Source of the DNA: an uncultured Planctomycetia bacterium
Lineage (GTDB): Bacteria; Omnitrophota; Gorgyraeia; Tantalellales; Tantalellaceae
Direction: 5' to 3'
Assembly: GCA_964409365.1 (NCBI GenBank)
Contig: CAYPCX010000012.1
Span: 178-64,177 of the forward strand
Length of the DNA stretch: 64,000 nucleotides
Position numbers and translations under genes: made by a program. Below are positions 6,146 to 46,313 of the stretch, one piece after another. The first letter of the stretch is position 1. Each line of letters starts with the position of its first letter. The notes beneath the pieces were generated by a model. It made no database searches. It was not told the origin of the DNA and worked only from the letters and a program-made list of their open reading frames with translations.

Positions 6146-7534
<1,389 letters not shown>

Positions 7535-24431: not shown

Positions 24432-24549
24432 TTTAACACCCTTCCGTTTAAAATCAACATATAAAAAAACGTCCCATTCCACCGCCAGCTTTGCGGCTGA
24501 AATAGGACGTCTTCATCCTGCCTGTCTTGTCCGGGACCGCGGTGCCCGG

Positions 24550-31116: not shown

Positions 31117-31137
31117 TTTTGCGCGCCTACATACCGC

Positions 31138-31398: not shown

Positions 31399-31482
31399 AG
31401 TATTACCTCATAGTATTATAAACACCCGCCATAAAGAGGTATCTTAATTGCCTTGAGCGGGGCGTCAATGACCGAGCGAGCA

Positions 31483-31572
31483 TGGTGTCCGCGCGAAGCG
31501 CGGACGAGCGAGGGAATTGTCGAGACCGATTCCCTCGCTGGGGAAATCGGTCGTCCCTGCGAGAGGCAGTTA
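31483..31572. repeat. ~90 bp palindromic repeat element, copy 1 (hairpin gtccgcgcgaagcgcggac + gagcgagggaat..attccctcgctgggg + atcggtcgtccctgcgag)
   Basis: ~85% identical to 32684..32771; internal inverted repeats. Confidence 0.8.
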
Positions 31573-32637: not shown

Positions 32638-32683
32638 GACTGGTCTACTGGAAATGTTCGAACTGTTCCGAGCGGGCACGGTC

Positions 32684-32771
32684 CCCGAGGGCCAAAGGCC
32701 CGAGGGGGAGCGAGGGAATGACAGAGGCCGATTCCCTCGCTGGGGGGATCGGCCGTCCCTGCGAGGACAGC
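32684..32771. repeat. ~90 bp palindromic repeat element, copy 2 (between truncated hypA and hypF fragment)
   Basis: gagcgagggaatgacagaggccgattccctcgctggggggatcggccgtccctgcgag; preceded by gggccaaaggccc hairpin. Confidence 0.8.
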
Positions 32772-32789
32772 TCAAACATTTGTTGTACA

Positions 32790-33032
32790 TCATTCTATAT
32801 CAAATGACAATACCTGGATTATCGTTCCCGGGAACATGGTTATCTCGAGGTCCGCCCCTTCAAGAAGAGTTCCCTTAGCCAGGACGGAAAAGGTTTCTTT
32901 GAAAGAATCCTCTTTCACACCTGTTAATTCCCCGACCTTGAGTTTCACGTTGGTGACCTTCTTGCCGCCTTCTTTCTCCGTATGCTCGGCTATACCCTTT
33001 ATGATAGGCTCTATAAGATGTGTCTCATGCAT
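32790..33032 (-). CDS. hypA: HypA-like N-terminal fragment (MHE Ni-site retained, Zn-finger CxxC...CxxC missing); probably truncated
   Basis: 80 aa MHETHLIEPI...LEGADLEI aligns to the HypA N-terminal half; no cysteines, stop 18 bp before repeat copy 2; no Zn finger in any downstream frame. Confidence 0.5.
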   Translation of the reverse strand: MHETHLIEPIIKGIAEHTEKEGGKKVTNVKLKVGELTGVKEDSFKETFSVLAKGTLLEGADLEITMFPGTIIQVLSFDIE

Positions 33033-33054: not shown

Positions 33055-33162
33055 ATGGTACGACAAACAGTAACCAGAAACCAGTTTCCAGTCCAGTTAC
33101 TGGTTACCGGTTACTGGTCACTTGTTACTCTATCCTTTTTCCTTTATCCTTGTTACTGTTCA
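33055..33162. repeat. heptamer-periodic repeat block (AACCAGW / GTTACYG / TATCCTT units) between protease gene and hypA, overlapping protease stop
   Basis: gttactg gttaccg gttactg gtcactt gttactc tatcctt tttcctt tatcctt gttactg ttcactg gttactt; includes palindromes aaaccagttt and ccagttactgg. Confidence 0.8.
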
Positions 33163-33617
33163 CTGGTTACTTTTTTAATCGCCGCCACGATCTCTCCAAG
33201 CGCCTTTTTCACGCTATCCGACATCTCTTCCCCGAATGCCACGTTACCCGGCTGCACCGCGAGCATGTAGATATCGGCTTTTGTTTCTTGCTCAAGGTAT
33301 TCAATGGCCATGACCGGTGAAAGGTCATGCGTGGTAAAACCCGACCTCACTATTTCGTCCTTATGCAGTATATCGTATGTCCCCGGGGCGGCATCCATAT
33401 GGACCGCATCGGCTATTATCACGGTATCCGGCTTCTCCCTGGCTATCTTGCCCAGGTAATTTTCCGGGGCGCTGCCGGCATCGATGCATATAAGGTGTCC
33501 TTCACCGGCAAGTATTTCCGCCAGCCGGGGGCCGAAGGCATCATCCCCCTTAAGGATGTTGCCTACACCCAGAAGAACGGTCTTCCCTTTAATAATCTTA
33601 TTAAAGATATTATCCAT
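33153..33617 (-). CDS. hydrogenase maturation endopeptidase (HycI/HybD family)
   Basis: 154 aa; GVGNILKGDDAFG metal-binding motif and conserved downstream H. Confidence 0.85.
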   Translation of the reverse strand: MDNIFNKIIKGKTVLLGVGNILKGDDAFGPRLAEILAGEGHLICIDAGSAPENYLGKIAREKPDTVIIADAVHMDAAPGTYDILHKDEIVRSGFTTHDLSPVMAIEYLEQETKADIYMLAVQPGNVAFGEEMSDSVKKALGEIVAAIKKVTSEQ

Positions 33618-33653
33618 AAAGCAAAGGTGGCGTTTGGAGGTGGCGTTCGCGCT

Positions 33654-34286
33654 CTACTTCTTCGCCGGTTCTTCTTTAGTAGTAAGGGTGGACTCCCGCC
33701 TGCAACGTGCGCATACTATCTTCACCCTGTCGGACCTCCCGTAATCCTTCATAGCGGAAATAATATTTTCATCTACAATACCAAGTTCCTTGAGACGGGT
33801 AAGATACAGGGTGGGGTTGGAGAACGTCAGTTCTCCCAGTCTTTCCGCTATCCATTTCAGGTGGTCCTTGCATGCGATGGGGTCGCCGCAGCATTCACAG
33901 AGCTGGAGTTCTTTTTCTATCGATTCCTCGGCCTCTTTCCTCTCGAAGAAAGAAAGCTCCCAGTCGGTCGAAAGTTTTATGCCTTCCTTGTCGGCCAGGC
34001 AGTTGGCTTCGCACTGGCCGCAAAATATGCATGTATCCGTATAATGTATCATTTTTCTTTTCGGGTCGGCCGGGTCGGTAGAATCCTCAAAAGCCAGGGC
34101 CTCGACCGGGCACACGCTCACGCAAGCCAGGCACCCCACGCACTTTTCTTCGTTATATTTCGGCTGACCCCGAAAGTTCTTATGGGCTACGTGCTCGGCC
34201 TTGGGGAACTTCGAAGTGTATGGCCCTTTAATAAGCGCCTTCACCGCTTCTATGATCTCTCTTATCTTCGGCTTGGGGATCCTCAT
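33654..34286 (-). CDS. NuoI-like 2x[4Fe-4S] ferredoxin subunit of membrane-bound hydrogenase (MbhN/EchF-like)
   Basis: 210 aa; CVGCLACVSVCP and CIFCGQCEANCL, plus extra C-terminal Cys-rich tail. Confidence 0.7.
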   Translation of the reverse strand: MRIPKPKIREIIEAVKALIKGPYTSKFPKAEHVAHKNFRGQPKYNEEKCVGCLACVSVCPVEALAFEDSTDPADPKRKMIHYTDTCIFCGQCEANCLADKEGIKLSTDWELSFFERKEAEESIEKELQLCECCGDPIACKDHLKWIAERLGELTFSNPTLYLTRLKELGIVDENIISAMKDYGRSDRVKIVCARCRRESTLTTKEEPAKK

Positions 34287-34622
34287 CTATTTTTCACCCT
34301 CTTTATCCTCGGCATACCTGTCGATGACGCTTTTCTCCCACAGCTTCACGCCGGCCCTGTGCGCGCCCCTTGCCACCGCATGCGCCGCCACGGGCGCCGT
34401 GAGTAGAATGAATATAATACAGAGAAGCGACTTAAGCCCGGCCGCGGTGAACCCCACGATCATGAACACACCGAAAAGTATGCTGCACGTGCCCAGGGTA
34501 ACGCTCTTCGTGGCGGCCTGCAAGCGGTTATACACATCCGGCAGGCGCACAAGACCTAAGCATCCGAGGAGGTCGAATGCCAGGCCTATGCTCACGAATG
34601 CCAGACCTATGATATCACTCAT
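34287..34622 (-). CDS. Mrp/Mnh antiporter subunit G-like
   Basis: 111 aa, 3 TM; MnhG-like. Confidence 0.65.
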   Translation of the reverse strand: MSDIIGLAFVSIGLAFDLLGCLGLVRLPDVYNRLQAATKSVTLGTCSILFGVFMIVGFTAAGLKSLLCIIFILLTAPVAAHAVARGAHRAGVKLWEKSVIDRYAEDKEGEK

Positions 34623-34983
34623 CGAAATCCTTCCCTTCGAGATATTTCGAAAGCGCCAGCGTACCTATGAAGCTCTGTAGCGCCCAGGCAATGCCTATGT
34701 CTATGTACCACATCCTGCCCGTGGAAATGCTCAGGATGGCGCAAAAACCTATGATCATGATACCGAAAATATCAATAGCAACGATACGGTCCGCCCCAGT
34801 CGGGCCCCTGAATATCCTGAAGAGGCACAGACAGCATGAGAGGACCAATATATAGATCGCCCTTCCCATGAAACCCGTGTAAGGCAGGTCGGGATAGAAA
34901 AGATATGCGAACGGCCTGAAGAGTATTATGAATATTATGACTCCCAGTATCGCCGCCCCTATGATCCACCTTATTATTTTCAT
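34615..34983 (-). CDS. Mrp/Mnh antiporter subunit F-like
   Basis: 122 aa, 3 TM; conserved RGPTxxDR. Confidence 0.65.
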   Translation of the reverse strand: MKIIRWIIGAAILGVIIFIILFRPFAYLFYPDLPYTGFMGRAIYILVLSCCLCLFRIFRGPTGADRIVAIDIFGIMIIGFCAILSISTGRMWYIDIGIAWALQSFIGTLALSKYLEGKDFDE

Positions 34984-34995
34984 CTATCTTGTCCT

Positions 34996-35496
34996 CTATT
35001 CAAATATCTTTTCGAGTATGTGCTCGAACTTGTCCACAATGATCTTAGTGGCTTTCTCAACGTCCTTGTCCTGCACATTGATCCAGTGGATGTAAAGCAC
35101 CCCGTTGTCGGCGTCTATATCCACGCTCATGGTCCCGGGCGTCAAGGTTATAGAATTGGCCAGGAACGTCAACCCCGTATCGGATCTTAATTTAGTTTTC
35201 ACTTTCACTATACCGGGATTTATAGGGAGCGCCGGATGTAGCACGCGGTAAGCCACGTCGATGTTCGCCTTGATACACTCCCACAGGAACTTCGGGAGAT
35301 AATGGGCCACAAAATACCAGTACCTGTGCGGATGACTGAGCATCTGCGTCCTTTTCACGAACATGTCCCCCGTCAGGAGCGCCACGAGAAGCGCCACCGG
35401 GATACCGACCAGAAGGTCCTGCCAGTCCGGCACCCAGTTCAGGAAACACCAGATAATGAAGCCCAGAATGAAGAGGATCGCCCTGCTTTTCATCAT
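34996..35496 (-). CDS. Mrp/Mnh antiporter subunit E-like
   Basis: 166 aa; MnhE-like membrane N-terminus plus soluble C-domain. Confidence 0.65.
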   Translation of the reverse strand: MMKSRAILFILGFIIWCFLNWVPDWQDLLVGIPVALLVALLTGDMFVKRTQMLSHPHRYWYFVAHYLPKFLWECIKANIDVAYRVLHPALPINPGIVKVKTKLRSDTGLTFLANSITLTPGTMSVDIDADNGVLYIHWINVQDKDVEKATKIIVDKFEHILEKIFE

Positions 35497-36998
35497 CCTA
35501 TCTCCTTAAAAACGACCGCGGCGTACTTTACCCCTTCCAGCAGGGTGTCAGCCGCCTTGCTCAGGAACATCTCGTCTATCTTTCCGTAAGCGAGTATGCC
35601 GCCGGCCAAACAAACCAGGGCAAGCGTCGCCATCGAGATCTTCATGAAAAGCGGCACTTCCCTGATCCCGGCCCATTTCTCTTTGAGTTTGTCGAAAAAG
35701 GCATATTTCATGACCTTCATGAAGGACGCCAGAGTGAGCACGCTCGCCACCACGGCCCAGAACGCATATCCGTACCGGCCTGCCTGCACACACGCGATTA
35801 TTATTATCAGCTTGCTCCAGAAACCGTTAAAGGGCGGTATGCCGGCGATCGCCATGGATGCGAAAAGACTGGTCGTCCCCGTAACCGGCATCTTTTGTAT
35901 CAGCCCTCCCATTTCCTTCAGGTCACGCGTATCCGTGGAATATTCTACCGCTCCTGAATTCAAGAAAAGAAGCGATTTAAAGACGGAGTGGTTAAAAAGA
36001 TGGAAAAGCCCCCCCAGTATCCCGAGCGGGGTCCCCAAGCCTATACCGAGTATCACGTACCCTATCTGGCTGATCGAGTGGTACGCTAAAAGACGTTTGA
36101 AATCCCACTGCCCGATAGCCAAAAAGACGCCTATGACCATTGAAAGCGCCCCCAGAAAGAGAAGTATATTGGATACCTCAGGCGTGAACCCCAGTACATT
36201 AAAGAATATCCTGCAGATCGCATAGACACCGAGCGATTTGATAAGCACTCCTGAAAGCATGGCCGATATGGGCGCCGGTGCCGAGGGATGCGCATCAGGC
36301 AGCCATGCATGGAACGGAACGAGCGCCGCCTTGAGGCCGAAACCCATCAGGAAAAGAACCGTCGTCATTATAACTATATCCGCTCCACCCTTCTGGGCCA
36401 GGACCTGGGCCATGTCGGCCATATTCAGCGTAGAAGTATAGCCGTACAGAAATACTATCCCGAGAAGCACGAAAAGCGACCCCACCGAGCTCATTATCGC
36501 ATATTTGAAAGCCGCTTCAAGTTCATGTTTTTCCGTCCCGTACGCGACAAGGGCGTAACTGGCGACCGAAGCGATCTCAAGAAATACGAACAGGTTGAAC
36601 ATGTCGCCGGATATCACTACCCCGTTCATACCCGCGAGCATCAGGAGGAACAGGCAGTAGAACTTCCACTTGGATGTGAACTTCTCCATGTAGTTTATAG
36701 AGAACACCGCTATGGCGAATGCCATAAGGTTCACGGTGACCAGCATGAACGAGGTCATGCCGTCCATCACCATGGCTATACCTATGGGAGGTTTCCACCC
36801 GCCGACCGCGTACACTAAAGTCCCGTAGTCGTTCACCAGTTTGACGGAAAAGATCGAAAGCGCAAAAAGTGTCAGGGTCAGGACGCTTCCCAGGATGTCC
36901 GGTACACCTTTTATCTTCTTGCCGAGAATGGGCATCAAAAAGGCGCCGGCCAGCGGGACGGCCACAAAAAGCGGTATTATATTCTCGGCCGGTATCAT
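35493..36998 (-). CDS. MrpD/NuoM-like proton-conducting antiporter subunit
   Basis: 501 aa, ~14 TM; proton-pumping TM7/TM12 signature region. Confidence 0.8.
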   Translation of the reverse strand: MIPAENIIPLFVAVPLAGAFLMPILGKKIKGVPDILGSVLTLTLFALSIFSVKLVNDYGTLVYAVGGWKPPIGIAMVMDGMTSFMLVTVNLMAFAIAVFSINYMEKFTSKWKFYCLFLLMLAGMNGVVISGDMFNLFVFLEIASVASYALVAYGTEKHELEAAFKYAIMSSVGSLFVLLGIVFLYGYTSTLNMADMAQVLAQKGGADIVIMTTVLFLMGFGLKAALVPFHAWLPDAHPSAPAPISAMLSGVLIKSLGVYAICRIFFNVLGFTPEVSNILLFLGALSMVIGVFLAIGQWDFKRLLAYHSISQIGYVILGIGLGTPLGILGGLFHLFNHSVFKSLLFLNSGAVEYSTDTRDLKEMGGLIQKMPVTGTTSLFASMAIAGIPPFNGFWSKLIIIIACVQAGRYGYAFWAVVASVLTLASFMKVMKYAFFDKLKEKWAGIREVPLFMKISMATLALVCLAGGILAYGKIDEMFLSKAADTLLEGVKYAAVVFKEIG

Positions 36999-37333
36999 CC
37001 TCTTAACTCCCTGATCTTCGTTATATCGAAAGTGCCGTATTTTTCATAAATTCTCATAGCTATACCTACGAGTAAAGCGGTGGTCGCAAGACCGATGACT
37101 ATCGCGGTCAGAACGAGCGCGTGCGGCAGCGGATCGACCATATTAGCGACGTCCTGTGTCTTCGAAAAGATAGGCGCGCGGCCTTCCACCCTGTATGCGG
37201 TCAGGATAAAGAAGAGGTTCACCGCATACTCTATGATGATGACCCCTATGATCAGCTTTATGACGTTGCGCTTCCTCACGACACAGTAGATGCCCACACA
37301 AAAAAGCGCCAGAGTAAGAAGGTAAACTATCAT
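36995..37333 (-). CDS. MrpC/NuoK-like subunit
   Basis: 112 aa, 3 TM with conserved Glu in TM2/TM3 (IIEYAVNLFF). Confidence 0.7.
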   Translation of the reverse strand: MIVYLLTLALFCVGIYCVVRKRNVIKLIIGVIIIEYAVNLFFILTAYRVEGRAPIFSKTQDVANMVDPLPHALVLTAIVIGLATTALLVGIAMRIYEKYGTFDITKIRELRG

Positions 37334-37335
37334 GT

Positions 37336-37785
37336 CTATTTCTTCCCCGTGTCAAATTTTACAAGGACCAGCGCGACGAATATGGCGAAGATACCCGCGC
37401 CGACCTTAAAAGATATCGCTATATTACAGAGCGGTATGATACCCGCGCTGAAAAGATGAAAAGGCTCTCCCTTGTGCAGGAAGTTCAGGAAAAAATACCC
37501 TCCCGTGAGCCCGAGAAGCGATATTGTCAGGAACATGATCGCACCCGTACTCTCCCAGACGGACGCCGCTGACCTTGACAACTTCTTGAAAGCGGCCTCT
37601 TTTCCGTATGCCAGCATGAGATGTATGAAGGAAAGCGCTATGATAACACCCCCTGCGAACCCCCCGCCGGGCGTAAGGTGTCCATGGAGCACTATATACA
37701 TGCCGTAAAGGAAGATGGCCCCGACCGTGAGGCGGGTTATCGTCTTCACTATCAGCGACATGCCTTTACCGTGTTCGTGGCTCAT
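37336..37785 (-). CDS. MrpB (MnhB)-like subunit
   Basis: 149 aa; HLTPGGGFAGG MnhB signature. Confidence 0.7.
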   Translation of the reverse strand: MSHEHGKGMSLIVKTITRLTVGAIFLYGMYIVLHGHLTPGGGFAGGVIIALSFIHLMLAYGKEAAFKKLSRSAASVWESTGAIMFLTISLLGLTGGYFFLNFLHKGEPFHLFSAGIIPLCNIAISFKVGAGIFAIFVALVLVKFDTGKK

Positions 37786-38327
37786 TCTTCTTCCTCTACC
37801 TTTTCACCGACTTTTTTCCTGCCTATACGCCGCACCACGGCCAGTACGCCTATAACGGCCGTAAAAAGTATTGTCGCCTCCCCCAGCGTGTCATAAGCCC
37901 TGAAATCCAGTATCACCGACCCGACCAGGTTGGTCGCGCCCGTCCTTGAAAGCCCTTCCTGTATATATGTCTTAGAGACCCTCATTATGGGATACCCGAA
38001 TTCCGGGAGGTCCTTGAAACACCTCAGCGCTACAAGGAAAAAGATAGCGATAAAACATATGGTGATCACCGTATTTAACAGCCACCTGCCCGTCGTCGAA
38101 AAAGGCAGGTCCTTTTTCAGGGTGGCCCTTATCAGGATTATGAGCGCCAATATCTCGACCACCAGCTGCGTAATGGCCACGTCAGGCGCCTTGAGCTGCA
38201 AAAATACTATCGAGAGCGCGAGGCCCACCGCTCCTACCGCTATGACGGAAGAAAGCAGGTCCTTCAGCTCAACCGCTATTATCGCGCCTATGATCATCAG
38301 GACCATCAGTATTAAAAGTTCTACCAT
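37782..38327 (-). CDS. MbhD/MrpA C-terminal-like membrane subunit (DUF4040-like)
   Basis: 181 aa, 4 TM; position and size match MbhD/E-type subunits. Confidence 0.45.
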   Translation of the reverse strand: MVELLILMVLMIIGAIIAVELKDLLSSVIAVGAVGLALSIVFLQLKAPDVAITQLVVEILALIILIRATLKKDLPFSTTGRWLLNTVITICFIAIFFLVALRCFKDLPEFGYPIMRVSKTYIQEGLSRTGATNLVGSVILDFRAYDTLGEATILFTAVIGVLAVVRRIGRKKVGEKVEEEE

Positions 38328-38330
38328 AAG

Positions 38331-39986
38331 TTATCGCCTCAATAAATAAAAGAAAAGCACGCCCATCCCGAGCAGGCACCACGCCAGGTACGTAAGAAGA
38401 ACCCCGTTGTGGATAAAACGCAGCACCCTGTTGAACCCGAGCGTGAATTTCACGCCTACTTCGTACACGTCAAAGAATTTCTTCTCCGCCCACCTGTATA
38501 TGATCCTCAATATGCCAATATCCTTTATCGTCTCGTAGAATTCGACGCCGGAGACCCGCATATCCGGGTATTGCTTTACGGTCTCGCCGCCTATAAAGAT
38601 ATCCGTGGTCCTGGTCCTGACCGCCGTCCCCGCAAGATATATGAGAAAACCTATTATGATACCTATAACGATCAGGGCCGTGGCAAGACCCGAATCCCAT
38701 ATGCCCGTAAATCCGGGGATCCCGCCCATGGACGGGAATATCAGCATCTTGAGCGGTATGGCCACGGCGAACACGCCGAAAACCACGCAAAGGGCGGCCA
38801 GGATAACGGACGGTATCCACATGGTCGCGCCCGTCTCTTTTCTCTCGCCCACCAGGTCCTTCATTTCCGCGGAAGGCTGGCCGAGGAATATAGCGTGAAG
38901 AAGCTTCATGAAGCTGGCCAGGGTAAGAGCGCTGCCGAACATGGCGGCGACAAGCCACAATATCCACAGCTTACTGCCGCCGGCGGTATTTATTATGCCC
39001 TGGTATATCATCCATTTCGACGCGAACCCGTTAAAGGGCGGCACGCCGGATATGGCCAGCGAGGCTATAAGAAAGGCCCCGAACGTGACCGGCATCACTT
39101 TGGCTAACCCGCCCAGCTTGCTGAGATCGGTCGTGCCTGTCCTCTTTTCCACCGCCCCGCCCGAGAGGAACAGGCCCGACTTGTATATGGCATTATTCAG
39201 CATATGAAAAAGACCGCCCGCTATGCCTACCGGGTTACCCGTTCCGATGCCGAGTATCATGTACCCCACCTGGCTGACGGCATGGTAACCAAGAAGCCGT
39301 TTGAGATCATGCTGGACAAGCGCCATCATGACCGCGGCCACTATGGTGAAACTCCCGAGGGCCATCAGGAAAATATTCATTCCCTTCGTCATCACGAAAA
39401 TATCCAGCGTCAGACGCACGAGAAAATAAATGCCAAGCAGCTTATCAAGTGCTGCCGGCAGATACGCGGCTACCGGGATCGGCGCGTCTTCGGCGGTGTC
39501 GGGTACCCACGTGTGGAAGGGCATGGCCCCCGCCTTCGCGAAGGCGCCTGAAGCCAGGCACAGGTAAGCCACAATGGCCGTCTTCGAGGTCAGGGCCACG
39601 CTCAGATCGTTCATCTGGAGAGTCCCGGCAAGGTGCCAGAGAAAACCAAGACCCAGGATCATGAACGCGTCGGTCCCGCCTATTATGATGAACGTCTTCT
39701 TTGCCGTGTACGCGGTGCTCTTTTTCTCGCCGAACCCTATCAAGAGATAAAGAAGCAGCCCGAGAAAACCCCAGAATACGATGAAGAGCACCAGGTTATC
39801 GGAAAAGACCGCCCCTATGGAAGCAGCCATCGTCAGGAGGATATAGATGTAATAGCGCAAGAGGCCCTTCTTCCCCTTCATAAAACCGAAGGAGTAAAAG
39901 ATGATCAGCGCGGAGAATACCATCACGAATATCGCGACGAACATCGACAGGTGGTCTACCCTGAAAAGCTGCGTATCGAACATCAT
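38331..39986 (-). CDS. NuoL/MrpA-like antiporter subunit (MbhH/HyfB-like)
   Basis: 551 aa, ~16 TM. Confidence 0.8.
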   Translation of the reverse strand: MMFDTQLFRVDHLSMFVAIFVMVFSALIIFYSFGFMKGKKGLLRYYIYILLTMAASIGAVFSDNLVLFIVFWGFLGLLLYLLIGFGEKKSTAYTAKKTFIIIGGTDAFMILGLGFLWHLAGTLQMNDLSVALTSKTAIVAYLCLASGAFAKAGAMPFHTWVPDTAEDAPIPVAAYLPAALDKLLGIYFLVRLTLDIFVMTKGMNIFLMALGSFTIVAAVMMALVQHDLKRLLGYHAVSQVGYMILGIGTGNPVGIAGGLFHMLNNAIYKSGLFLSGGAVEKRTGTTDLSKLGGLAKVMPVTFGAFLIASLAISGVPPFNGFASKWMIYQGIINTAGGSKLWILWLVAAMFGSALTLASFMKLLHAIFLGQPSAEMKDLVGERKETGATMWIPSVILAALCVVFGVFAVAIPLKMLIFPSMGGIPGFTGIWDSGLATALIVIGIIIGFLIYLAGTAVRTRTTDIFIGGETVKQYPDMRVSGVEFYETIKDIGILRIIYRWAEKKFFDVYEVGVKFTLGFNRVLRFIHNGVLLTYLAWCLLGMGVLFFYLLRR

Positions 39987-41158
39987 ATCTTCTTCCTGAT
40001 ATCCTCTGTCTTTTTCTGGGAGAGCTTTACGAGATCCTCTCCACCGTAAAGTTTTTTGCCCTTCGAGTCACGGACGGCCACCCTCTCGGTGCAACAATAG
40101 CACGGGTCTATGGCTGCCAGGATTATGGTCGCGTCCGATATCGTCTCACCGACCACGGTCGCTTTATAGGTCGGGAGGTTCATGAAGGTCGGGGCCCTTA
40201 CCTTATGCCTCGCGGGGCTGTTGGTGCCGTCGCTCTTCACATAATGGAACGTTTCACCTCTGGGCGCTTCGATATGCCCTATGCCTTCTCCCGGAGGCAC
40301 GTTCTTGAGATTAAGGTCTATATCCCCCGCCGGGAGGTTCTCAAGGCAATATTTCATTATCTTGTGCGATTCCAGCATCTCAAGCACCCTCACGATGACC
40401 TTGTCATAGACGTCACCGTTCTCGGCCACTATCATGTCCCATTCTACCCGGTCATAGACCCCATAAGGAGAATCCTTCCTGACGTCCCTGGCAACGCCTG
40501 AGGCACGCGACGTCGGCCCGAGTGCGCAATAATCGATAGCTTCTTCCTTAGTAAGTATACCCACGCCCTTGGTCCTGGCATGCAGCACAGGATCGTCCGT
40601 TACCGCCTTTCTGAGCATATCCAGCGTCGGGACTATGGAATCGATCTTCTTCACACACACCGGTATATCCTCTTCCTTGAAGTCCCTTCTTACTCCGCCC
40701 GGCTTGAACATCGCATAGTTGTTCCTGTTACCGGAAAGTATCTCCATGACATCCAGGATCTCTTCGCGGAGCTTCCATGCCCACATGTAGACGGTGTTAT
40801 ATCCAAGGAAATGTCCCGCCAGGCCCAGCCACAAAAGGTGCGAGTGGATCCTTTCCCCCTCGGCTATAACTGTTCTGATGAACTTCGCCCGATCCGGCAC
40901 TTCAACGGGGAATATATCCTCGACCGCCCTCGTGTACGCGAAAGGATGGCTCGTCGAACATATGCCGCAGATCCTTTCTATAACGAACGTTGACTGGTCA
41001 AAGCTTTTCATCTCGGAAAGCTTCTCTATACCCCTGTGGTTATATCCCACCTGCATGTCTATATCGACGACCTTCTCACCTTCCACCGTGAGGGTGAAAA
41101 ACTCCGGCTCTTCCTGGAGCGGATGGTACGGTCCTATTGGTACTATTGTCTTAGCCAT
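39983..41158 (-). CDS. group-4 (energy-converting) [NiFe] hydrogenase large subunit, NuoD-like
   Basis: 391 aa; N-terminal RICGICSTSH (L1), C-terminal DPCYCCTER (L2), then 31-aa C-terminal extension for protease cleavage. Confidence 0.9.
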   Translation of the reverse strand: MAKTIVPIGPYHPLQEEPEFFTLTVEGEKVVDIDMQVGYNHRGIEKLSEMKSFDQSTFVIERICGICSTSHPFAYTRAVEDIFPVEVPDRAKFIRTVIAEGERIHSHLLWLGLAGHFLGYNTVYMWAWKLREEILDVMEILSGNRNNYAMFKPGGVRRDFKEEDIPVCVKKIDSIVPTLDMLRKAVTDDPVLHARTKGVGILTKEEAIDYCALGPTSRASGVARDVRKDSPYGVYDRVEWDMIVAENGDVYDKVIVRVLEMLESHKIMKYCLENLPAGDIDLNLKNVPPGEGIGHIEAPRGETFHYVKSDGTNSPARHKVRAPTFMNLPTYKATVVGETISDATIILAAIDPCYCCTERVAVRDSKGKKLYGGEDLVKLSQKKTEDIRKKI

Positions 41159-41163
41159 GTCAG

Positions 41164-41191
41164 TTCTTAGTTCTTAGTTATTAGTTCAGAG
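41164..41191. repeat. heptanucleotide tandem repeat TTCTTAG x4 between nuoC-like and large-subunit genes
   Basis: ttcttag ttcttag ttattag ttcagag. Confidence 0.85.
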
Positions 41192-41206
41192 TCAAATATT
41201 TCAAAA

Positions 41207-41677
41207 TCATATTCCGCGATCTCTTATCGCTTTCTTGTCCCACTCTTCGTAATCACACCTCAAAGGATACACCCCTTCCGGCCATTCATCCGAAAGCAGC
41301 AGCCTCCTCTTATCCGGGTGACCTTTGAAATCGATACCTAAAAGCTCACTCATCTCCCTTTCTATCCAGTTCGCCCCTTCAAAAACGGGGGCGAGAGAAT
41401 CTATTTCAAGTTTATCGACAGGCAATTTCACCCTGAACGAGATGAGAAGGTTTATATCTTCTACCGTAAAATGGTAAAGTATCTCGAAATGATGCCTGCA
41501 ATCCACGCCGGAAGCGATGTTGAACCTCGCCTTGATCTGGCGAAGAGCATACGTCGCTATCTTGACCAGCGCTTCCTTCCTGATCTCGATGTACACTCTC
41601 GAGGGCGACTTGTCGAAGACATCGACTATGTCGTCCTTGAATCTTCCCGTAATATCTTTAAGTATCTCTTCTCTCAT
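41207..41677 (-). CDS. NuoC-like 30 kDa subunit of group-4 hydrogenase
   Basis: 156 aa from ATG 41677 (MREEILKD), overlapping small-subunit stop (ATGA); ORF-track N-terminal extension is GC-rich out-of-frame sequence. Confidence 0.75.
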   Translation of the reverse strand: MREEILKDITGRFKDDIVDVFDKSPSRVYIEIRKEALVKIATYALRQIKARFNIASGVDCRHHFEILYHFTVEDINLLISFRVKLPVDKLEIDSLAPVFEGANWIEREMSELLGIDFKGHPDKRRLLLSDEWPEGVYPLRCDYEEWDKKAIRDRGI

Positions 41678-42111
41678 TTTTTCTCGGCTGCCTGCGCCTT
41701 CACCTTCTCTATCAGCTTCACGACACCGGCTATTATCGCCTCGGGTTTCGGGGGACATCCCGGGATATACACATCGACCGGTATGATCTTGTCCAGCGGC
41801 TGTGGACAGTTGTAACTGTGCACGAACATGCCCCGGGACATCGAACATTCCCCGATAGCCACTACAAGACAGGGCTTAGGCGCCTGTTCATAAAGCCTCT
41901 TGAGCCTCTCGGCCGATTTCCTGTTGCAGGAACCCGTAATGAGAAGCACATCGGCATGTTTTATGCTCGGCGCCAGAAGCATCCCGAACCTTTCGATGTC
42001 GAACCTGGGCGTGAGACAGTCCAGCACCTCGATATCACAGTTGTTGCAACTGCCCGTGGACAGGTGGAACACCCACGGTGACCTCAAAAGCGCATTAAGT
42101 TTAAAGCTCAT
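41674..42111 (-). CDS. NuoB-like [NiFe] hydrogenase small subunit (proximal 4Fe-4S)
   Basis: 145 aa; CxxC...GxC...GCPP cysteines (GSCNNCD, IGECS, PGCPP). Confidence 0.85.
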   Translation of the reverse strand: MSFKLNALLRSPWVFHLSTGSCNNCDIEVLDCLTPRFDIERFGMLLAPSIKHADVLLITGSCNRKSAERLKRLYEQAPKPCLVVAIGECSMSRGMFVHSYNCPQPLDKIIPVDVYIPGCPPKPEAIIAGVVKLIEKVKAQAAEKK

Positions 42112-42123
42112 ATCCTCAATTCC

Positions 42124-43047
42124 CTATTTTCCAAAATAAGCCAAGACTACCGCCCCGACAGCCAGGACCGTCATCGGTCCCCAGAAGAATTTTACGGCCT
42201 GGTCTATCCTGAGACGCGGGTTAGTATTGCGTATTACCGTTATCAACGCCACAAGCAGCACATATTTAAGGATGCCGTACAAGAGATGTATACCGTCAAA
42301 CCGCAAGCCTCCCATGTAAAGTATCATCAGGAAAAAAGGCAGCGTGAAAAGGAGCATGTTCTTGGTCAGTCGGAACATGGCGAGGGCCGTTCCCGAATAT
42401 TCTATCAGCGCGCCGCCCGAGATCTCGGTCTCCGCCTCCGGTATATCGAACGGCACCAACGCGAGTTTCGCCTGGACGCTCATGAGCGCCACGACCAGGG
42501 CTATGAACCCCGACAGGCTCCCTACCACTACTCCATTCTGCGCCTGCGCGCCGAGTATCTCGCCTATCCTTATGGAATACCCCGACTTGATCACTGGCAC
42601 CATCACCGCGAACACGAAAGGCAGTTCGTACGCTAATATCAGTTTCATCTCGCGCGAGGCGCCGATACTCGCCAGGGGGTTGGCCGAAGCGAAACCGCCC
42701 ATTATTATGCTCATAGAAGGTATCGTCAAAAGATAGATGGCCACTATTATATCGCCCACAAACCCCTGGCCTAACCTGATATCGTTGATCCAGAGCAGGG
42801 TCGAGACCAGGACCACACTGCTAAAGCCCACTACCGGCGCCATTAAAAAGGTCGTCCTGGAAGCCCCCGCGGGCACAAGCGTTTCCTTTCCGAGAAGTTT
42901 TATTATATCGATCAACGGCTGAAGGAGCGGAGGTCCCACCCTGTACTGCACGCGGGCCGTGACCTTCCGGTCTATCCAGCTCGCCAGAAGTCCTATGACC
43001 GCGGTCAGGAAAAACCCGAAAAATATAAGGTAAAAAATATATATCAT
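42124..43047 (-). CDS. NuoH-like membrane subunit (MbhM/EchB/HycD-like)
   Basis: ~307 aa from ATG 43047 (MIYIFYL); 8 TM; ORF-track extension MGYGPWTVDEK is translation of heptamer repeats. Confidence 0.8.
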   Translation of the reverse strand: MIYIFYLIFFGFFLTAVIGLLASWIDRKVTARVQYRVGPPLLQPLIDIIKLLGKETLVPAGASRTTFLMAPVVGFSSVVLVSTLLWINDIRLGQGFVGDIIVAIYLLTIPSMSIIMGGFASANPLASIGASREMKLILAYELPFVFAVMVPVIKSGYSIRIGEILGAQAQNGVVVGSLSGFIALVVALMSVQAKLALVPFDIPEAETEISGGALIEYSGTALAMFRLTKNMLLFTLPFFLMILYMGGLRFDGIHLLYGILKYVLLVALITVIRNTNPRLRIDQAVKFFWGPMTVLAVGAVVLAYFGK

Positions 43048-43053
43048 CTTCTC

Positions 43054-43109
43054 GTCCACGGTCCACGGTCCATAGCCCACGGTTGACAGTGGACTATGGT
43101 CTGTGGACT
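43054..43109. repeat. heptamer-periodic tandem repeat (GTCCACG-like x8) upstream of nuoH-like start
   Basis: gtccacg gtccacg gtccata gcccacg gttgaca gtggact atggtct gtggact. Confidence 0.8.
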
Positions 43110-43135
43110 GAACTCCGTACCCGTTAATTTCATTC

Positions 43136-43705
43136 TCATGCCTTTTCCCACTCCCAGTGCGTGGAATGGACTATAATATTATTTCCTACTAAAAAGGTAT
43201 TCTCGCCTAGTTCTTCGTCAGCCCCCACCAGCTTAAGCGCGCCGTAAGGGCATGTCTTTATGCACAGAGGTTCGTCCTTCTCGGTCCTTCTGTCCAGGCA
43301 AAAATCGCAGTTATGCACAAGATATGGTACGGTCTCCGGATATATGGTGCCGTAAGGACACGCGTGCGAACATGACCTGCAGCTCACGCAGCGCATGTTA
43401 TGCCTTATGAGCATCTTGTCCTTTTTTTCGTCCTCCTGCTGCTCGAGGGCCTCGAACGGACAGGAAGCGACACAATGGGGTTCTTCGCACCTGCGGCAGA
43501 CAAGCGCATATGTCGCCAGTTCGACGACCGACATAATGCCGTTGTTGTTCGTCTGGCGGTGATAGAGATAGCTGCATTTAACAACGCAGTCCTCACACTC
43601 ACCGGAGGCGCAGGCATCGAGGTCGATAAAAAGGCGCTTATCTTTGCCCTTTTCCGGCTCTGTATTAAATCTTCCCTGATGTATCTGTTCGGCGCTCGAG
43701 TCCAT
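43136..43705 (-). CDS. polyferredoxin, ~4x[4Fe-4S] (HycB/HydN-like electron-transfer subunit)
   Basis: 189 aa; four CxxCxxC(xxx)CP-like groups. Confidence 0.7.
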   Translation of the reverse strand: MDSSAEQIHQGRFNTEPEKGKDKRLFIDLDACASGECEDCVVKCSYLYHRQTNNNGIMSVVELATYALVCRRCEEPHCVASCPFEALEQQEDEKKDKMLIRHNMRCVSCRSCSHACPYGTIYPETVPYLVHNCDFCLDRRTEKDEPLCIKTCPYGALKLVGADEELGENTFLVGNNIIVHSTHWEWEKA

Positions 43706-43706
43706 G

Positions 43707-44537
43707 TTAATCCCAGATCCCGTGGAAACCCTTTATCTTTGAATACTGAAAGACCGGGCCGTCTTTGCACGCGTAATAAGTGCCCAGCCGGCAGTGCCCG
43801 CATTTGCCTATACCGCAGGACATGTTCTTTTCCATAGAAAGATATATATTATCTTCCTGAAAACCCATATCGAGAAGTTTAAGTGTGGCGAACTTCATCA
43901 TGATCGGGGGGCCGCAAACCACGGCAATGGCTTCTTTACAGTCTACTCTTATATCGTCAAATATCGTCGTCACGACACCGACATTGCCCTTCCATTTATC
44001 GTCACCGTGATCGACCGTAAGACGCAAGTCAAGGTCGTCCCGCTTTGCCCATTCATCGGTCTCGCTCCTGTAGACCATTTCTTTGGGCGTCTTACACCCG
44101 CCCCTGAAATAGAGTTTCTTGAACTTCCCGCTCCTGTTGAAGAACTCGTACATAAGGCTGCGAAGGGGGGCGAAACCGCATCCGCCGCCTATTACCACCA
44201 CTTCCCTGCCCTCGAACTCATCTATTGGGTATGCCGTGCCCAACGGGCCTCTTACACCTATAACATCACCCTTTTTAAGGTCGTGCACTTTATCCGTGAC
44301 CTTGCCCACCTTCATGATGGTCACTTCCATTATGTCCTTCTGGGCGGGATTCGACGACGGCGTAAAGGGCGCCTCACCCACCCCGGGCACCGTTATCTCC
44401 ACGAACTGCCCGGAAAGGAATTCGATAGGCTCCTCGGGTTTGAAGCGGATCGTCTTTATGGTAGGGGTCTCCGGGATGACCTCTATGACTTCCGCTTTGA
44501 CCGGCCTGTATGGATTGGTTATCTTTTTCTCAGCCAC
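43707..44537 (-). CDS. FAD/NAD(P)H-binding 2Fe-2S oxidoreductase subunit (HydG/AsrB/PyrK-like)
   Basis: 276 aa; ferredoxin-NADP reductase-like fold and C-terminal CGIGKCGHC cluster. Confidence 0.75.
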   Translation of the reverse strand: MAEKKITNPYRPVKAEVIEVIPETPTIKTIRFKPEEPIEFLSGQFVEITVPGVGEAPFTPSSNPAQKDIMEVTIMKVGKVTDKVHDLKKGDVIGVRGPLGTAYPIDEFEGREVVVIGGGCGFAPLRSLMYEFFNRSGKFKKLYFRGGCKTPKEMVYRSETDEWAKRDDLDLRLTVDHGDDKWKGNVGVVTTIFDDIRVDCKEAIAVVCGPPIMMKFATLKLLDMGFQEDNIYLSMEKNMSCGIGKCGHCRLGTYYACKDGPVFQYSKIKGFHGIWD

Positions 44538-45564
44538 TTTCCACCAGCTTTTTCAGGACTTCCCTTATGTCTATCTTGGCGGGACACGCCGAGACGCACC
44601 TGCCGCACCCCGTGCACGCGTACACATCCGCTACTTTCGGGAAAAAGTCGAACTTTTTCTCGAACCTGTTCCTGAGGCGCATCCAGAGGTGCGGCCGCGG
44701 GTTCGCCCCGCCGGCCACCCTGGCGTAATCCTTGATCATGCAGGAATCCCACACGCGAAGGCGCGCCATTTTCTCTTCGCTCTTCTGGTCATAAAGGAGG
44801 AAGCAATGACAGGTCGGGCAGATTATCGTGCACGCCCCGCACTCCACGCACGTCTTCGCTTCTTCCTCCCATATCTCGGACTCGAAATTCCTCTCTATTA
44901 TGCCTTTATATTTTTTCTGGTCGGGTATGCCGTTCTCCTTGATATTGCGCTTGACCTCATCAACGACCTTCTTCCTGGCTTTTTCCTGTCGCGAAACCAG
45001 GCGTTCGTTGGCTTCCTGGAACAGCGAAGTGTTGCTCTCCAGTATCTCCTCACCCTTGTCGGAACCGGCTTCCACCAGGAAACCGTGGTCCACCTCGGTA
45101 AGGTTGATGTCGAAGTCCTTTTCCGGATAGGGCTTTATCCCCACGGCCATGCAGAAACATGTCTCTATCGCACAGGTGCAGTCGGAAGATATGATAAGGT
45201 TCTCGTCGCGGTTCTTGATGTAGATGGGGTCTTTATAGTCGTGGTCAAGGAACACATGGTCCTGGATCTTGAACCCCTTCAGGTCGCATGCTTTCACGCC
45301 GACTATGGCGAAGGGCTTGTCCTCGGAATGCGGTATCTTGGGGCTGAAGTCCTCCGCCACTACTTCGCGGGCCCTCGTGAAGAAAGCTTTAAGCGGTTCG
45401 AACGGCCTTACCTCTCCTATTGTAACGTCATCCGTGAATTTTTCGTATCTGGCGTAAAAACGCTGTTCACCCTTTTTCACGGGCACGAAAACGTTATAGC
45501 CCTTCCTGAGCGAATTCAGGAATTTCACGAAATTTTCATGGGTGATGTATCTCATCTTCTTCAT
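44530..45564 (-). CDS. 4Fe-4S dicluster subunit (HydB/AsrA-like)
   Basis: 344 aa; CVECGACTIICPTC and CTGCGRCVSACP ferredoxin motifs plus extra Cys cluster (SSDCTCAIETCFC). Confidence 0.7.
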   Translation of the reverse strand: MKKMRYITHENFVKFLNSLRKGYNVFVPVKKGEQRFYARYEKFTDDVTIGEVRPFEPLKAFFTRAREVVAEDFSPKIPHSEDKPFAIVGVKACDLKGFKIQDHVFLDHDYKDPIYIKNRDENLIISSDCTCAIETCFCMAVGIKPYPEKDFDINLTEVDHGFLVEAGSDKGEEILESNTSLFQEANERLVSRQEKARKKVVDEVKRNIKENGIPDQKKYKGIIERNFESEIWEEEAKTCVECGACTIICPTCHCFLLYDQKSEEKMARLRVWDSCMIKDYARVAGGANPRPHLWMRLRNRFEKKFDFFPKVADVYACTGCGRCVSACPAKIDIREVLKKLVESG

Positions 45565-46190
45565 TTTTTCGCGACCATGAAATAGGTCAGGGTCTCCAGC
45601 TCGCGCGAAAGATCGACGTTCTTTACTTTCACGTCCTCCGGGACGTTCAGGCTTACCGGCGCGAAATTAAGTACGCATTTGACACCGGCTTCCACCAGCT
45701 TGTCAGCCACTTCCTGCGCGTTCCCGGCCGGAACAGCCACTATCCCGATGCTTATCTTTTTTTCCGCTATCGTCTTTTTAAGCTCGGTGATCGGCCGGAC
45801 CTCTATATCCCCGAGTTTCGTACCGATCTTGTCGACGTGGGCGTCGAACGCGGCGACCACTTCAAGCCCGTGCCTTTTAAAACCCGGGTAGTTCAAAAGC
45901 GCTGAACCCAGATGCCCGGCTCCCACTACGGCAACGCTCCAGGTCTTATCCTTACCGAGTATTTTTTCCAGGGCTTTTTTCAGTTCGGCGGTGTCATAAC
46001 CCGAACCGCTGACCCCGAACTGGCCGAAATACCCGAGGTCTTTTCTTACCTGCGCGTCGCTGAGGTTCGTCCTCTCACCCAGCTCGGCAGACGATATCGT
46101 CCTTATGTTCATCCCGGCGAGTTCCGTGACTTCTCTCAGATAGACGAAAAGCCGTGATATCGTACCTTCTGGCACCTTTTTACCGTTCAT
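45561..46190 (-). CDS. rex: redox-sensing transcriptional repressor Rex
   Basis: 209 aa; N-terminal wHTH (RLFVYLR...), Rossmann NADH-binding VAVVGAGHLG. Confidence 0.85.
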   Translation of the reverse strand: MNGKKVPEGTISRLFVYLREVTELAGMNIRTISSAELGERTNLSDAQVRKDLGYFGQFGVSGSGYDTAELKKALEKILGKDKTWSVAVVGAGHLGSALLNYPGFKRHGLEVVAAFDAHVDKIGTKLGDIEVRPITELKKTIAEKKISIGIVAVPAGNAQEVADKLVEAGVKCVLNFAPVSLNVPEDVKVKNVDLSRELETLTYFMVAKK

Positions 46191-46215
46191 GGGACCTCAA
46201 ACCGCATTCGGGACT

Positions 46216-46254
46216 TTGTGACAATATTCACAGACTTTGTTATTAAGTTCACAA
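46216..46254. promoter_or_regulatory. two tandem Rex operator-like palindromes (TTGTGAcaataTTCACAg and TTGTtAttaagTTCACAA) upstream of rex
   Basis: Both match TTGTGAA-N4-TTCACAA at 16/18 positions; 3 bp apart in the rex promoter region. Confidence 0.6.
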
Positions 46255-46313
46255 ATATAATATGTTTCCTTTATAAAGTCAAGGGGTTTTTTAAAGAAAG
46301 GGTAGGGAAAAAG

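Follow-up and report, generated by a model that had tools for sequence, protein, structure and literature searches.

Which molecule feeds electrons into a membrane-bound [NiFe] hydrogenase whose operon opens with genes for an NAD(P)H-type flavoprotein module? The question is raised by a 64,000-nucleotide (nt) stretch of DNA (hereafter, the window) from an uncultured bacterium of the GTDB phylum Omnitrophota (assembly GCA_964409365.1, contig CAYPCX010000012.1, positions 178–64,177 of the forward strand). One tightly packed string on the minus strand, from 46282 to 33153, begins with a promoter and two Rex operators, which are followed by rex, then by 16 hydrogenase genes and finally by hycI; the list of open reading frames (ORFs), Pfam, NCBIfam and independent gene calls on the identical ENA metagenome contig are concordant on it. 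By its gene content, this string is a real, intact operon, predicted to encode a membrane-bound, ion-pumping [NiFe] hydrogenase with an NAD(P)H-type input module. We propose, with a probability of about 0.5, that the product is a reversible, ion-coupled NAD(P)H:H+ oxidoreductase under the control of Rex and a member of the Hun family. The cluster itself belongs to an already published, widespread family and is not a discovery. What is added here are numbers on the linkage of the input genes hunABC and on the selection acting on them, recurrent Rex operators, sequence evidence that strengthens the case for NAD(P)H binding by the flavoprotein subunit HunB, and Desulfosarcina variabilis as a possible experimental host.

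Gene content of the operon

The genes from rex to hycI, in the order of transcription, are the following.

45561–46190, minus strand: rex, redox-sensing (NADH/NAD+) repressor of 209 amino acids (aa); Pfam Put_DNA-bind_N and CoA_binding
44530–45564, minus strand: hunA, HydB/ShyB/AsrA-like iron-sulfur subunit, 344 aa
43707–44537, minus strand: hunB, HydG/ShyC/AsrB-like subunit with FAD, NAD(P) and [2Fe-2S] sites, 276 aa; Pfam FAD_binding_6, NAD_binding_1 and DHODB_Fe-S_bind above cutoff
43136–43705, minus strand: hunC, CooF/HycB/DmsB-type ferredoxin with four [4Fe-4S] motifs, 189 aa; Pfam Fer4_11
42124–43047, minus strand: hunD, NuoH/MbhM-like membrane anchor, 307 aa in the gene call; Pfam NADHdh, 4.6e-64
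41674–42111, minus strand: hunE, NuoB-like hydrogenase small subunit; Pfam Oxidored_q6; NCBIfam NF005012 (NuoB subfamily), 146 bits against a cutoff of 116
41207–41677, minus strand: hunF, NuoC-like, 156 aa in the gene call; Pfam Complex1_30kDa
39983–41158, minus strand: hunG, group-4 [NiFe] large subunit (NuoD-like), 391 aa
38331–39986, minus strand: hunH, NuoL/MrpA-like antiporter subunit; Pfam Proton_antipo_M/N
37782–38327, minus strand: hunI, MbhD and MbhE domains (C-terminal part of MrpA); Pfam PF13244 and PF20501
37336–37785, minus strand: hunJ, MrpB/MnhB-like; Pfam MnhB
36995–37333, minus strand: hunK, MrpC/NuoK-like; Pfam Oxidored_q2
35493–36998, minus strand: hunL, MrpD-like second antiporter subunit; Pfam Proton_antipo_M, 8e-71
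34996–35496, minus strand: hunM, MrpE; Pfam MNHE
34615–34983, minus strand: hunN, MrpF; Pfam MrpF_PhaF
34287–34622, minus strand: hunO, MrpG; Pfam PhaG_MnhG_YufB
33654–34286, minus strand: hunP, NuoI/HycF-like subunit with two [4Fe-4S] clusters and a cysteine-bearing C-terminal extension
33153–33617, minus strand: hycI-type maturation endopeptidase; Pfam HycI, 1.7e-16

A first-pass annotation, made from the letters of the window, had listed these 18 genes, and ORFs, Pfam, NCBIfam and gene calls confirm all of them on the minus strand, with positions that equal those it had assigned or differ by a few codons. The gene identities held, while some details needed correction: the NuoC-like protein has 156 aa and does not correspond to the 213-aa ORF first chosen, the NuoH-like gene starts at 43047, and the gene labelled MbhD-like also encodes an MbhE domain. 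The overall architecture that had been described, a pair resembling the beta and gamma subunits of sulfhydrogenase I (SHI) and a CooF/HycB-type polyferredoxin placed ahead of a group-4 core with a full Mrp set, is the one found here. Up to hycI, adjacent genes overlap by 4–8 nt or are separated by gaps of at most 88 nt. The rex stop and the hunA start overlap by 4 nt, an arrangement that predicts translational coupling of rex to hunA.

The hunG/hunH overlap in the window is also 4 nt; in about 13 related operons a gap of approximately 600 nt stands at this junction, and at the single locus examined (L004, 11182–11784) the gap is a gene for a 200-aa PhoU-domain protein. HunH aligns from its residue 8 to positions ~66–78 of the NuoL, MrpA and HyfB models, so that one or two transmembrane helices at the start of its canonical homologs seem to be missing from it.

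Membership in the Hun family

The large subunit HunG carries the L1 motif RICGICSTSH and the L2 motif DPCYCCTER, as first noted, and ends in a 32-aa C-terminal extension, by its sequence a tail of the type that is cut off by HycI-type proteases. Cysteines C64, C67, C353, C355 and C356 are invariant in 109 orthologs. In addition to the four Ni-Fe cysteine ligands, the operon has the other features of a group-4 hydrogenase, that is, a NuoB-type small subunit, a NuoH-type membrane subunit and a HycI-type protease. The closest solved large subunit is MbhL (6CFW_L, 3.5e-87), and HycE is also matched (7Z0S_E, 2.1e-80). HunG was placed through these PDB matches, representatives clustered at 50 per cent identity and the published classes of close relatives.

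A 16-gene operon, named hun (hunA–P) and described as a hydrogenase–Na+/H+ antiporter supercomplex, has been reported from metagenome-assembled genomes (MAGs) of Atribacteria, Firmicutes, Omnitrophica, Elusimicrobia and Bacteroidetes and from Kosmotoga isolates (Glass et al. 2021; bioRxiv 10.1101/536078). HydDB calls its HunG group 4g, yet HunG is distant from other 4g sequences, and CGIC...CYCC marks Hun whereas other group 4 hydrogenases have CxxC (Glass et al. 2021). The window has the identical 16-gene order and CGIC/CYCC signature, together with an AsrAB-like pair without AsrC. By these marks, the window operon is a member of the published family, with the layout rex-hunABCDEFGHIJKLMNOP-hycI-hyp. 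The canonical hunA–P order (Glass et al. 2021) is the very one that had been taken as unusual, with the catalytic core ahead of the Mrp genes and NuoI at the end.

Other assignments do not fit. HunG scores 48.8 bits against ShyA, with a cutoff of 700, and a 3b-type alpha/delta hydrogenase pair is not the partner encoded in the window operon. A Pyrococcus furiosus-type Mbh (group 4d) has a different gene order, and the window operon has two Proton_antipo_M subunits.

Enzymes of this kind have been met repeatedly. An 'enigmatic' group-4 hydrogenase of Saganbacteria is accompanied by Mrp, cooF-like, asrA-like and asrB-like genes, with roles maybe like those of nuoE and nuoF (Matheus Carnevali et al. 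2019); a 'Mbh-Mrp-oxidoreductase type' was described with function unknown (Meheust et al. 2020); the donor was given as 'ferredoxin or NADH' (Bird et al. 2019); and 'Group 4g, Mrp-linked' enzymes of Omnitrophota and Auribacterota were listed as ferredoxin-dependent Mbh (Williams et al. 2021, 2022). For the Tritonobacter lacicola MAG, an Mrp-linked enzyme has been reported as group 4g; a locus of this MAG (L075) shares the synteny of the window operon and is 66 per cent identical.

To place the window operon among its relatives, one genome per GTDB species was scanned with HunG, which gave at least 590 confirmed matches, of the Hun type and perhaps of others; the best 80 loci have 65–88 per cent identity. 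Gene neighbourhoods of related loci were mapped by tblastn with all window proteins. By submitter labels, which supply all phylum names used for these loci, the best 80 of the at least 590 belong to Omnitrophota, Elusimicrobiota, Fermentibacterota/Aegiribacteria, Hydrogenedentota, Spirochaetota, Sumerlaeota, Atribacterota, Desulfobacterota, Nitrospinota, Nitrospirota, Acidobacteriota, Binatia, Planctomycetota, Clostridia and Auribacterota. The 59 genome loci with enough sequence represent about a dozen or more phylum-level groups by label, and the cultured Desulfosarcina variabilis str. Montpellier has a related hun locus (L056).

Each of the 115 large subunits that share 60 per cent identity or more with HunG has DPCYCC, whereas plain group-4 paralogs in hun loci have DPCI[SA]C instead. 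In the 50 per cent identity library, P0123 (57 per cent identical) is the sole inspected full-length representative with DPCYCC; its sister P0122 is a NuoCD fusion with DPCYSC, and other full-length relatives have at most 47 per cent identity. The Hun clade therefore appears to be represented by one full-length 50 per cent cluster.

Linkage of the input module

In 59 of 59 genome loci with enough sequence, the genes hunA, hunB and hunC immediately precede the catalytic genes and share their strand. In a reciprocal scan, metagenome contigs were searched with HunA and the 34 loci with at least 4.5 kb of downstream sequence were counted; hunB, hunC and hunG were all found in 33 of them. The survey for the same synteny elsewhere that had been suggested thus returned the input trio nearly everywhere, and the idea of a novel hybrid did not survive it: the DPCYCC clade routinely carries the input genes, which are present at every locus with enough flanking sequence. 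Median hun gene junctions range from -11 to +41 nt (57–135 loci). Even in Spirochaetota-labelled loci, in which the NuoH, NuoI and Mrp genes are reshuffled, the input trio still abuts the catalytic core.

A molybdopterin gene between hunB and hunC has been described in some MAGs (Matheus Carnevali et al. 2019; Glass et al. 2021). None is found among 126 loci, in which this junction has no insertion and a widest gap of 449 nt. Pfam detects no FdhH or CooS gene in the window cluster. Upstream of hunA, Pfam searches of ten long ORFs (from 7 of the 59 loci) reveal no dehydrogenase, neither FdhH nor a carbon monoxide dehydrogenase (CODH) partner; the ORFs sampled encode SLT/TPR proteins, PAS histidine kinases, glycosyltransferases, a methyltransferase and a permease, and are unrelated between lineages. 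Taken together, these counts speak, in quantitative terms, for HunABC as an obligate component of the enzyme that is maintained by selection, and as its sole conserved input.

Could HunABC instead be a separate soluble enzyme that stands outside the membrane complex? The 88-nt hunC/hunD gap, which is the widest junction inside the window operon, might be read in this way. However, the adjacency is kept in about 92 loci of many phyla, even where the downstream order is scrambled; terminator-like sites show no excess (15, vs 17.2 in shuffled sequence); and Bird et al. (2019) report that Atribacteria in situ transcribe the hydrogenase together with the oxidoreductase beside it. We give this explanation hardly any credence.

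Several variants of the arrangement were seen. Nine rearranged operons, all Spirochaetota-labelled, have hunA, B and C followed by hunE, F, G and P, hycI, hunD, hunH and the Mrp genes, and in some of these loci the Mrp genes are divergent and upstream. In a variant at L087 (5551–10542) and L085, a HunA-like gene (71 per cent identity) is directly followed by Mrp-like genes (~45 per cent identity), first MrpE, F and G, then MbhD/E, and lastly MrpB, C and D; there is no hunB or hunC between them, and the contig ends before any catalytic genes.

Predicted cofactor sites of HunA and HunB

HunA matches the beta subunit of P. furiosus SHI (PDB 9NEZ_B) over residues 7–338 with an E-value of 1.9e-44, and HunB matches the gamma subunit (9NEZ_C) over its full length with an E-value of 1.5e-54. 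At the level of sequence homology, these matches settle the folds of HunA and HunB. In SHI, the gamma subunit provides the NADPH/FAD site and the beta subunit the electron relay, and that the full-length homologs of HunA and HunB are these NADPH-binding subunits is counted in favour of NAD(P)H input.

The sites are also conserved. In HunA, 15 of 16 cysteines are invariant (139 distinct orthologs), as are all 16 cysteines of HunC (97 orthologs). Among 121 HunB orthologs, which are 52–80 per cent identical to the window protein, the PFTPSS motif of the FAD site, CGPP, the four [2Fe-2S] cysteines, and the glycines, alanine, proline and arginine of the GGGxGxAPxR NAD(P) site are 99–100 per cent conserved; R145 is kept in 118 and K/R149 in all. 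The NAD(P)-binding fold that had been named as the test for 43707–44537 is thus present and conserved, by Pfam, the 9NEZ_C match and the orthologs alike. By its domains and motifs, HunB is an FNR-type NAD(P)H oxidoreductase with predicted nucleotide binding, and the conservation indicates that its nucleotide site is under selection.

This conservation bears on the proposal that Hun is driven by reduced ferredoxin, which would donate to HunABC or HunP, makes H2 and pumps H+ or Na+ outward as Mbh does, HunB having either a vestigial flavin site or the role of a side outlet that makes NAD(P)H. Such a machine would be thermodynamically straightforward and would account for the large ion-translocating module. 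In HydDB, HunG is reported to fall into group 4g, described as 'putatively ferredoxin-coupled'; MbhL, its nearest relative among solved large subunits, is ferredoxin-dependent, and Omnitrophota that bear the enzyme also encode Rnf, a possible NADH–ferredoxin link. A vestigial site, however, would not hold its FAD and NAD(P) motifs at 99–100 per cent in orthologs as divergent as these, and AsrB-type proteins have a pyridine-nucleotide site and no ferredoxin site. To our knowledge, and as the subunit set of PDB 6CFW illustrates, the ferredoxin-dependent Mbh and Ech manage without a polyferredoxin or flavoprotein adaptor. Moreover, plain group-4 paralogs without HunABC adjoin hun in the same genomes; their large subunits are 39–45 per cent identical and have DPCIAC or DPCISC. 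The presence of such a paralog beside hun in several genomes argues for different donors of the two enzymes. On balance we regard ferredoxin as a rather unlikely donor. The second, plain group-4 cluster lies upstream of rex/hunA at six loci and downstream, on the opposite strand, at two (L041 and L047).

The same homologies invite another explanation, in which HunAB is a module for the reduction of sulfur, polysulfide or sulfite, the role originally suggested for sulfhydrogenase beta/gamma and AsrAB, and the complex is a membrane-bound sulfur-compound reductase or sulfhydrogenase. HunA and HunB are homologous to AsrA and AsrB as well as to the SHI subunits, and Bird et al. (2019) mention that the enzyme might 'and/or reduce sulfur compounds'. 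Yet neither AsrC nor a sulfite-reductase catalytic domain is found in the operon or its flanks, and no related locus has AsrC or a siroheme subunit. The [NiFe] ligands, HycI and Hyp genes are intact, which indicates a real hydrogenase, and sulfur reduction by SHI is now held to be non-physiological. We therefore consider a sulfur-reducing role very improbable.

HunB scores an E-value of 1e-54 against the ShyC and HydG models. Homology surveys for ShyC (K17995), such as that of Ace Lake (35 per cent identity, 50 per cent coverage), could catch Hun and inflate the apparent sulfur-reducing potential. At one locus (L080), a 3b-like set of a HydB-like gene (28 per cent identity), a HydG-like gene (38 per cent) and a small-subunit-like gene stands immediately upstream of hunA, so that 3b-type and Hun-type beta/gamma paralogs occur within one genome.

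The proposed electron wire

In formate hydrogenlyase (FHL) and CO-dependent hydrogenases, a HycB/CooF polyferredoxin together with a HycF/CooX subunit links the [NiFe] core and a soluble dehydrogenase. In Hun, the PDB matches of HunC are AorA (8C0Z_C), FdnH and HycB3, which puts it in the HycB/CooF/DmsB class, and HunP matches HycF (7Z0S_F, 5.6e-19) better than MbhN (6.3e-12) and conserves its eight cluster cysteines. By these matches, the Hun wire is of the FHL type, with a HycF-like HunP and a HycB/CooF-class HunC. The C-terminal extension of HunP has four further cysteines, C130, C133, C192 and C195, conserved at 97–100 per cent (59 orthologs); they suggest one more metal site, for zinc or another cluster, in a region that alignments to MbhN and HycF leave uncovered.

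Promoter and predicted Rex control

The head of the operon, transcribed on the minus strand, contains three control sites.

46254–46282, minus strand: sigma-70-like promoter, TTGACT (46282–46277), 17-nt spacer, TATATT (46259–46254)
46237–46254, minus strand: Rex operator 1, TTGTGAACTTAATAACAA, which overlaps the final base of the -10 hexamer
46216–46233, minus strand: Rex operator 2, CTGTGAATATTGTCACAA, placed 21 nt after operator 1 and 26 nt before the rex ATG

The promoter matches the consensus at 10 of 12 positions and is the top-scoring promoter-like site between 28500 and 46500 (both strands scanned). Each operator has two mismatches to the consensus TTGTGAANNNNTTCACAA, and the two are the sole sites with at most two mismatches in the 64-kb window, against 0.15 expected by chance. 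The rex gene and the two tandem boxes at the operon head, both of which had been noticed in the sequence, are thus borne out. The Rex protein exceeds the cutoffs of two curated NCBIfam Rex models (NF003995, 263.6 against 126 bits; NF003993, 256.4 against 217 bits). Rex-like sites with three mismatches at 5450, 15786 and 31755 are taken as chance occurrences, of which 1.9 are expected.

Among related loci, a Rex box with at most two mismatches lies within 300 bp upstream of the operon in 19 of 66, and the whole set of related loci holds 25 such sites in 1.22 Mb. Several of the loci with a box have no rex gene heading the operon, and the site of the Tritonobacter MAG is free of mismatches. Tandem boxes at 21-nt spacing (at most three mismatches) recur in at least six Omnitrophota-type loci. 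No Rex box was found upstream in the loci labelled Spirochaetota, Fermentibacteria or Desulfosarcina. We conclude that Rex control of the window operon is real by in-silico standards and well supported, and that across the family it is lineage-specific.

Proposed mechanism, direction and energetics

From the gene content, motifs, synteny and operator sites observed, we infer complex formation, NAD(P)H as substrate, direction and ion coupling as follows. Hun would be a machine of the formate-hydrogenlyase or CO-hydrogenase type in which an NAD(P)H dehydrogenase serves as the substrate dehydrogenase. HunB would take NAD(P)H at its FNR-type FAD/NAD(P) site, and its own [2Fe-2S] cluster would relay the electrons to HunA and the clusters there. 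HunC, a CooF/HycB-type adaptor with four [4Fe-4S] clusters, would then conduct them to the HycF-like HunP, after which they would reach the proximal cluster of HunE and, in HunG, the [NiFe] site. Movement of H+ or Na+ through the full Mrp module, with HunH and HunL as antiporter-like subunits, would be coupled to redox turnover at the interface of HunD and HunG. Rex would repress the operon at low NADH/NAD+ and let go when NADH accumulates, which makes the disposal of excess reducing equivalents as H2 the likely direction here. H2 evolution could be pulled by a low H2 partial pressure, pushed by ion influx (reverse electron transport), or both.

The energetics constrain this scheme. Under standard conditions, H2 formation from NAD(P)H is uphill by about +18 kJ/mol (computed from E0' values of -320 and -414 mV), and the computed NADH/H2 equilibrium at NADH/NAD+ = 1 lies near 70 Pa H2. 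Outward ion pumping during NADH-driven H2 evolution is therefore implausible. It is more likely that the Mrp module would drive H2 formation by ion influx, or would conserve energy in the H2-oxidising direction.

The latter direction is an alternative in its own right: H2 would reduce NAD(P)+ (about -18 kJ/mol at standard conditions) while Na+ or H+ is pumped outward, and such a respiratory H2:NAD(P)+ oxidoreductase would suit acetogens and hydrogenotrophs. Soluble SHI probably runs from H2 to NADPH. The reaction is exergonic and gives the Mrp module an obvious role, and the 'Mbh-Mrp-oxidoreductase' type occurs in Elusimicrobia lineages predicted to be acetogens (Meheust et al. 2020). Rex, however, derepresses at high NADH/NAD+, a signal that does not suit an enzyme which reduces NAD+, in the Rex-controlled loci at any rate, and the Ace Lake Omnitrophota genera with a group 4g Mrp-linked enzyme, for which no other hydrogenase is reported, are inferred to be fermenters in need of an electron sink. 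Uptake as the main direction thus seems quite improbable.

Several points weigh against NAD(P)H as the donor, and against Rex control as a sign of it. Glass et al. (2021) predict ferredoxin as the Hun donor. HunA and HunB score below the curated cutoff of every named equivalog (ShyB, ShyC, HydB, AsrA, AsrB and HydG): HunA reaches 203 bits against ShyB (cutoff 690) and 129.9 against AsrA (TIGR02910, cutoff 323), and HunB 185 bits against ShyC (cutoff 600) and 234.2 against AsrB (TIGR02911, cutoff 288.6). The profile searches proposed at the outset therefore bear out homology but stop short of any named equivalog; function is not transferable by orthology, and HunA and HunB make up a separate subfamily. 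Except at very low H2, outward pumping is incompatible with H2 evolution driven by NAD(P)H, and a large Mrp module has a clear purpose only if it runs in reverse. HunB conserves GC[K/R][T/N/S], which bears a weak likeness to NADPH-type signatures of the FNR family, whereas Rex senses NADH. Most non-Omnitrophota loci lack Rex boxes. Finally, the Rex regulons of other anaerobes also cover ferredoxin-dependent hydrogenases, so that Rex control is no proof of direct NADH use.

With these points set against the linkage, site conservation and FHL-type wire, the even odds given at the outset apply to the enzyme of the window as an ion-coupled NAD(P)H:H+ oxidoreductase. For the family as a whole, the idea that Hun uses pyridine nucleotides directly, as a 'complex I with protons as acceptor' that works in both directions and whose expression is tied to Rex, is a possibility that we put forward tentatively, at a little less than even odds.

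Maturation genes and neighbourhood

The operon runs on downstream of hycI into maturation genes.

29065–33032, minus strand: hypA (80 aa), N-terminally truncated hypF (407 aa), hypC, hypD and hypE, by Pfam

HypA (32790–33032) covers positions 1–70 of the 112 of the Pfam HypA profile, and HypF (31570–32793) is the Kae1-like C-terminal half, without the acylphosphatase, zinc-finger and YrdC domains. No hypB is present in the window cluster. The short forms are kept beside related hun operons (HypA has exactly 80 aa in 24 of 28 ORFs, and HypF 348–425 aa in 13 of 13), which argues for a minimal maturation set and not for assembly errors.

Elsewhere in the window, between 6146 and 24482, genes on one and the same strand form a nitrogen-assimilation neighbourhood.

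6146–7525: glutamate dehydrogenase
12453–13904: small subunit of glutamate synthase (GOGAT)
13894–18420: large subunit of GOGAT
19309–20577: ammonium transporter
20602–21453: 283-aa ORF without a Pfam match
21570–22274: GAF-ANTAR regulator
22281–24482: type III glutamine synthetase

Implications

HydDB lists group 4g as the one large energy-converting [NiFe] class with undetermined role, and the Hun clade is very common if judged from the HunG scan of species-representative genomes, in whose count matches of other types may be included. If NAD(P)H is the input, a function would be assigned to a large part of this uncharacterised class, and reconstructions that draw these enzymes as ferredoxin-dependent Mbh would be wrong on the redox balance and energy conservation of the anaerobes concerned. 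Fermenters and syntrophs across many phyla would then dump NAD(P)H as H2 by means of ion influx, without the detour through ferredoxin and Rnf, and the enzyme running backward would conserve energy from the reduction of NAD(P)+ by H2. This would be a new route from NADH to H2, a long-standing thermodynamic puzzle of fermentation and syntrophy. The electron-donor question matters for many uncultured phyla and is directly testable because cultured hosts exist, namely Kosmotoga (Glass et al. 2021) and Desulfosarcina variabilis str. Montpellier.

Comparison with known systems

Hun as described by Glass et al. (2021) and the window operon share the same 16 genes in the same order, an AsrA/AsrB-like HunAB without AsrC, CGIC...CYCC and a full Mrp-like module. 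The window operon differs in having rex and two Rex operators at its head and hycI/hyp directly after, and in lacking a molybdopterin protein between HunB and HunC. The donor, predicted there to be ferredoxin, is read here as NAD(P)H; neither Rex nor an NAD(P)H donor is mentioned in the published description (Glass et al. 2021).

The Mbh of P. furiosus (group 4d, PDB 6CFW) resembles Hun in its NuoB/C/D/H/I-like core, Mrp-derived ion module and MbhD/E domains. Its operon, however, has the Mrp genes first, and the enzyme has one antiporter-like subunit and no input module and draws on free ferredoxin for its electrons. Going by the description of group 4 in Glass et al. (2021), it does not have CYCC as its L2 motif.

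E. coli Hyc (group 4a, PDB 7Z0S), Coo and Thermococcus Mch-Mnh (4b/4c) likewise combine a dehydrogenase, a four-cluster ferredoxin, a HycF-like subunit and a [NiFe] core. The Hun dehydrogenase is instead predicted to be a pair of an FNR-type flavoprotein and an iron-sulfur protein, and there is no gene for a molybdopterin enzyme or a Ni-CODH. In Thermococcus 4b clusters, the catalytic genes stand ahead of the Mrp genes, as in Hun.

Sulfhydrogenases I and II (group 3b, HydBGDA/ShyBCDA, PDB 9NEZ) contain the full-length homologs of HunA and HunB, in which the FAD, NAD(P), [2Fe-2S] and [4Fe-4S] motifs are kept, but the Hun pair is encoded with a membrane group-4 enzyme and not with a 3b alpha/delta pair. 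The likeness to respiratory complex I lies in the plan, as a pyridine-nucleotide dehydrogenase module would feed a NuoB/D/H/I core coupled to antiporter-like subunits, whereas the Hun input is unrelated to NuoEFG and the acceptor would be H+ at the [NiFe] site and not quinone.

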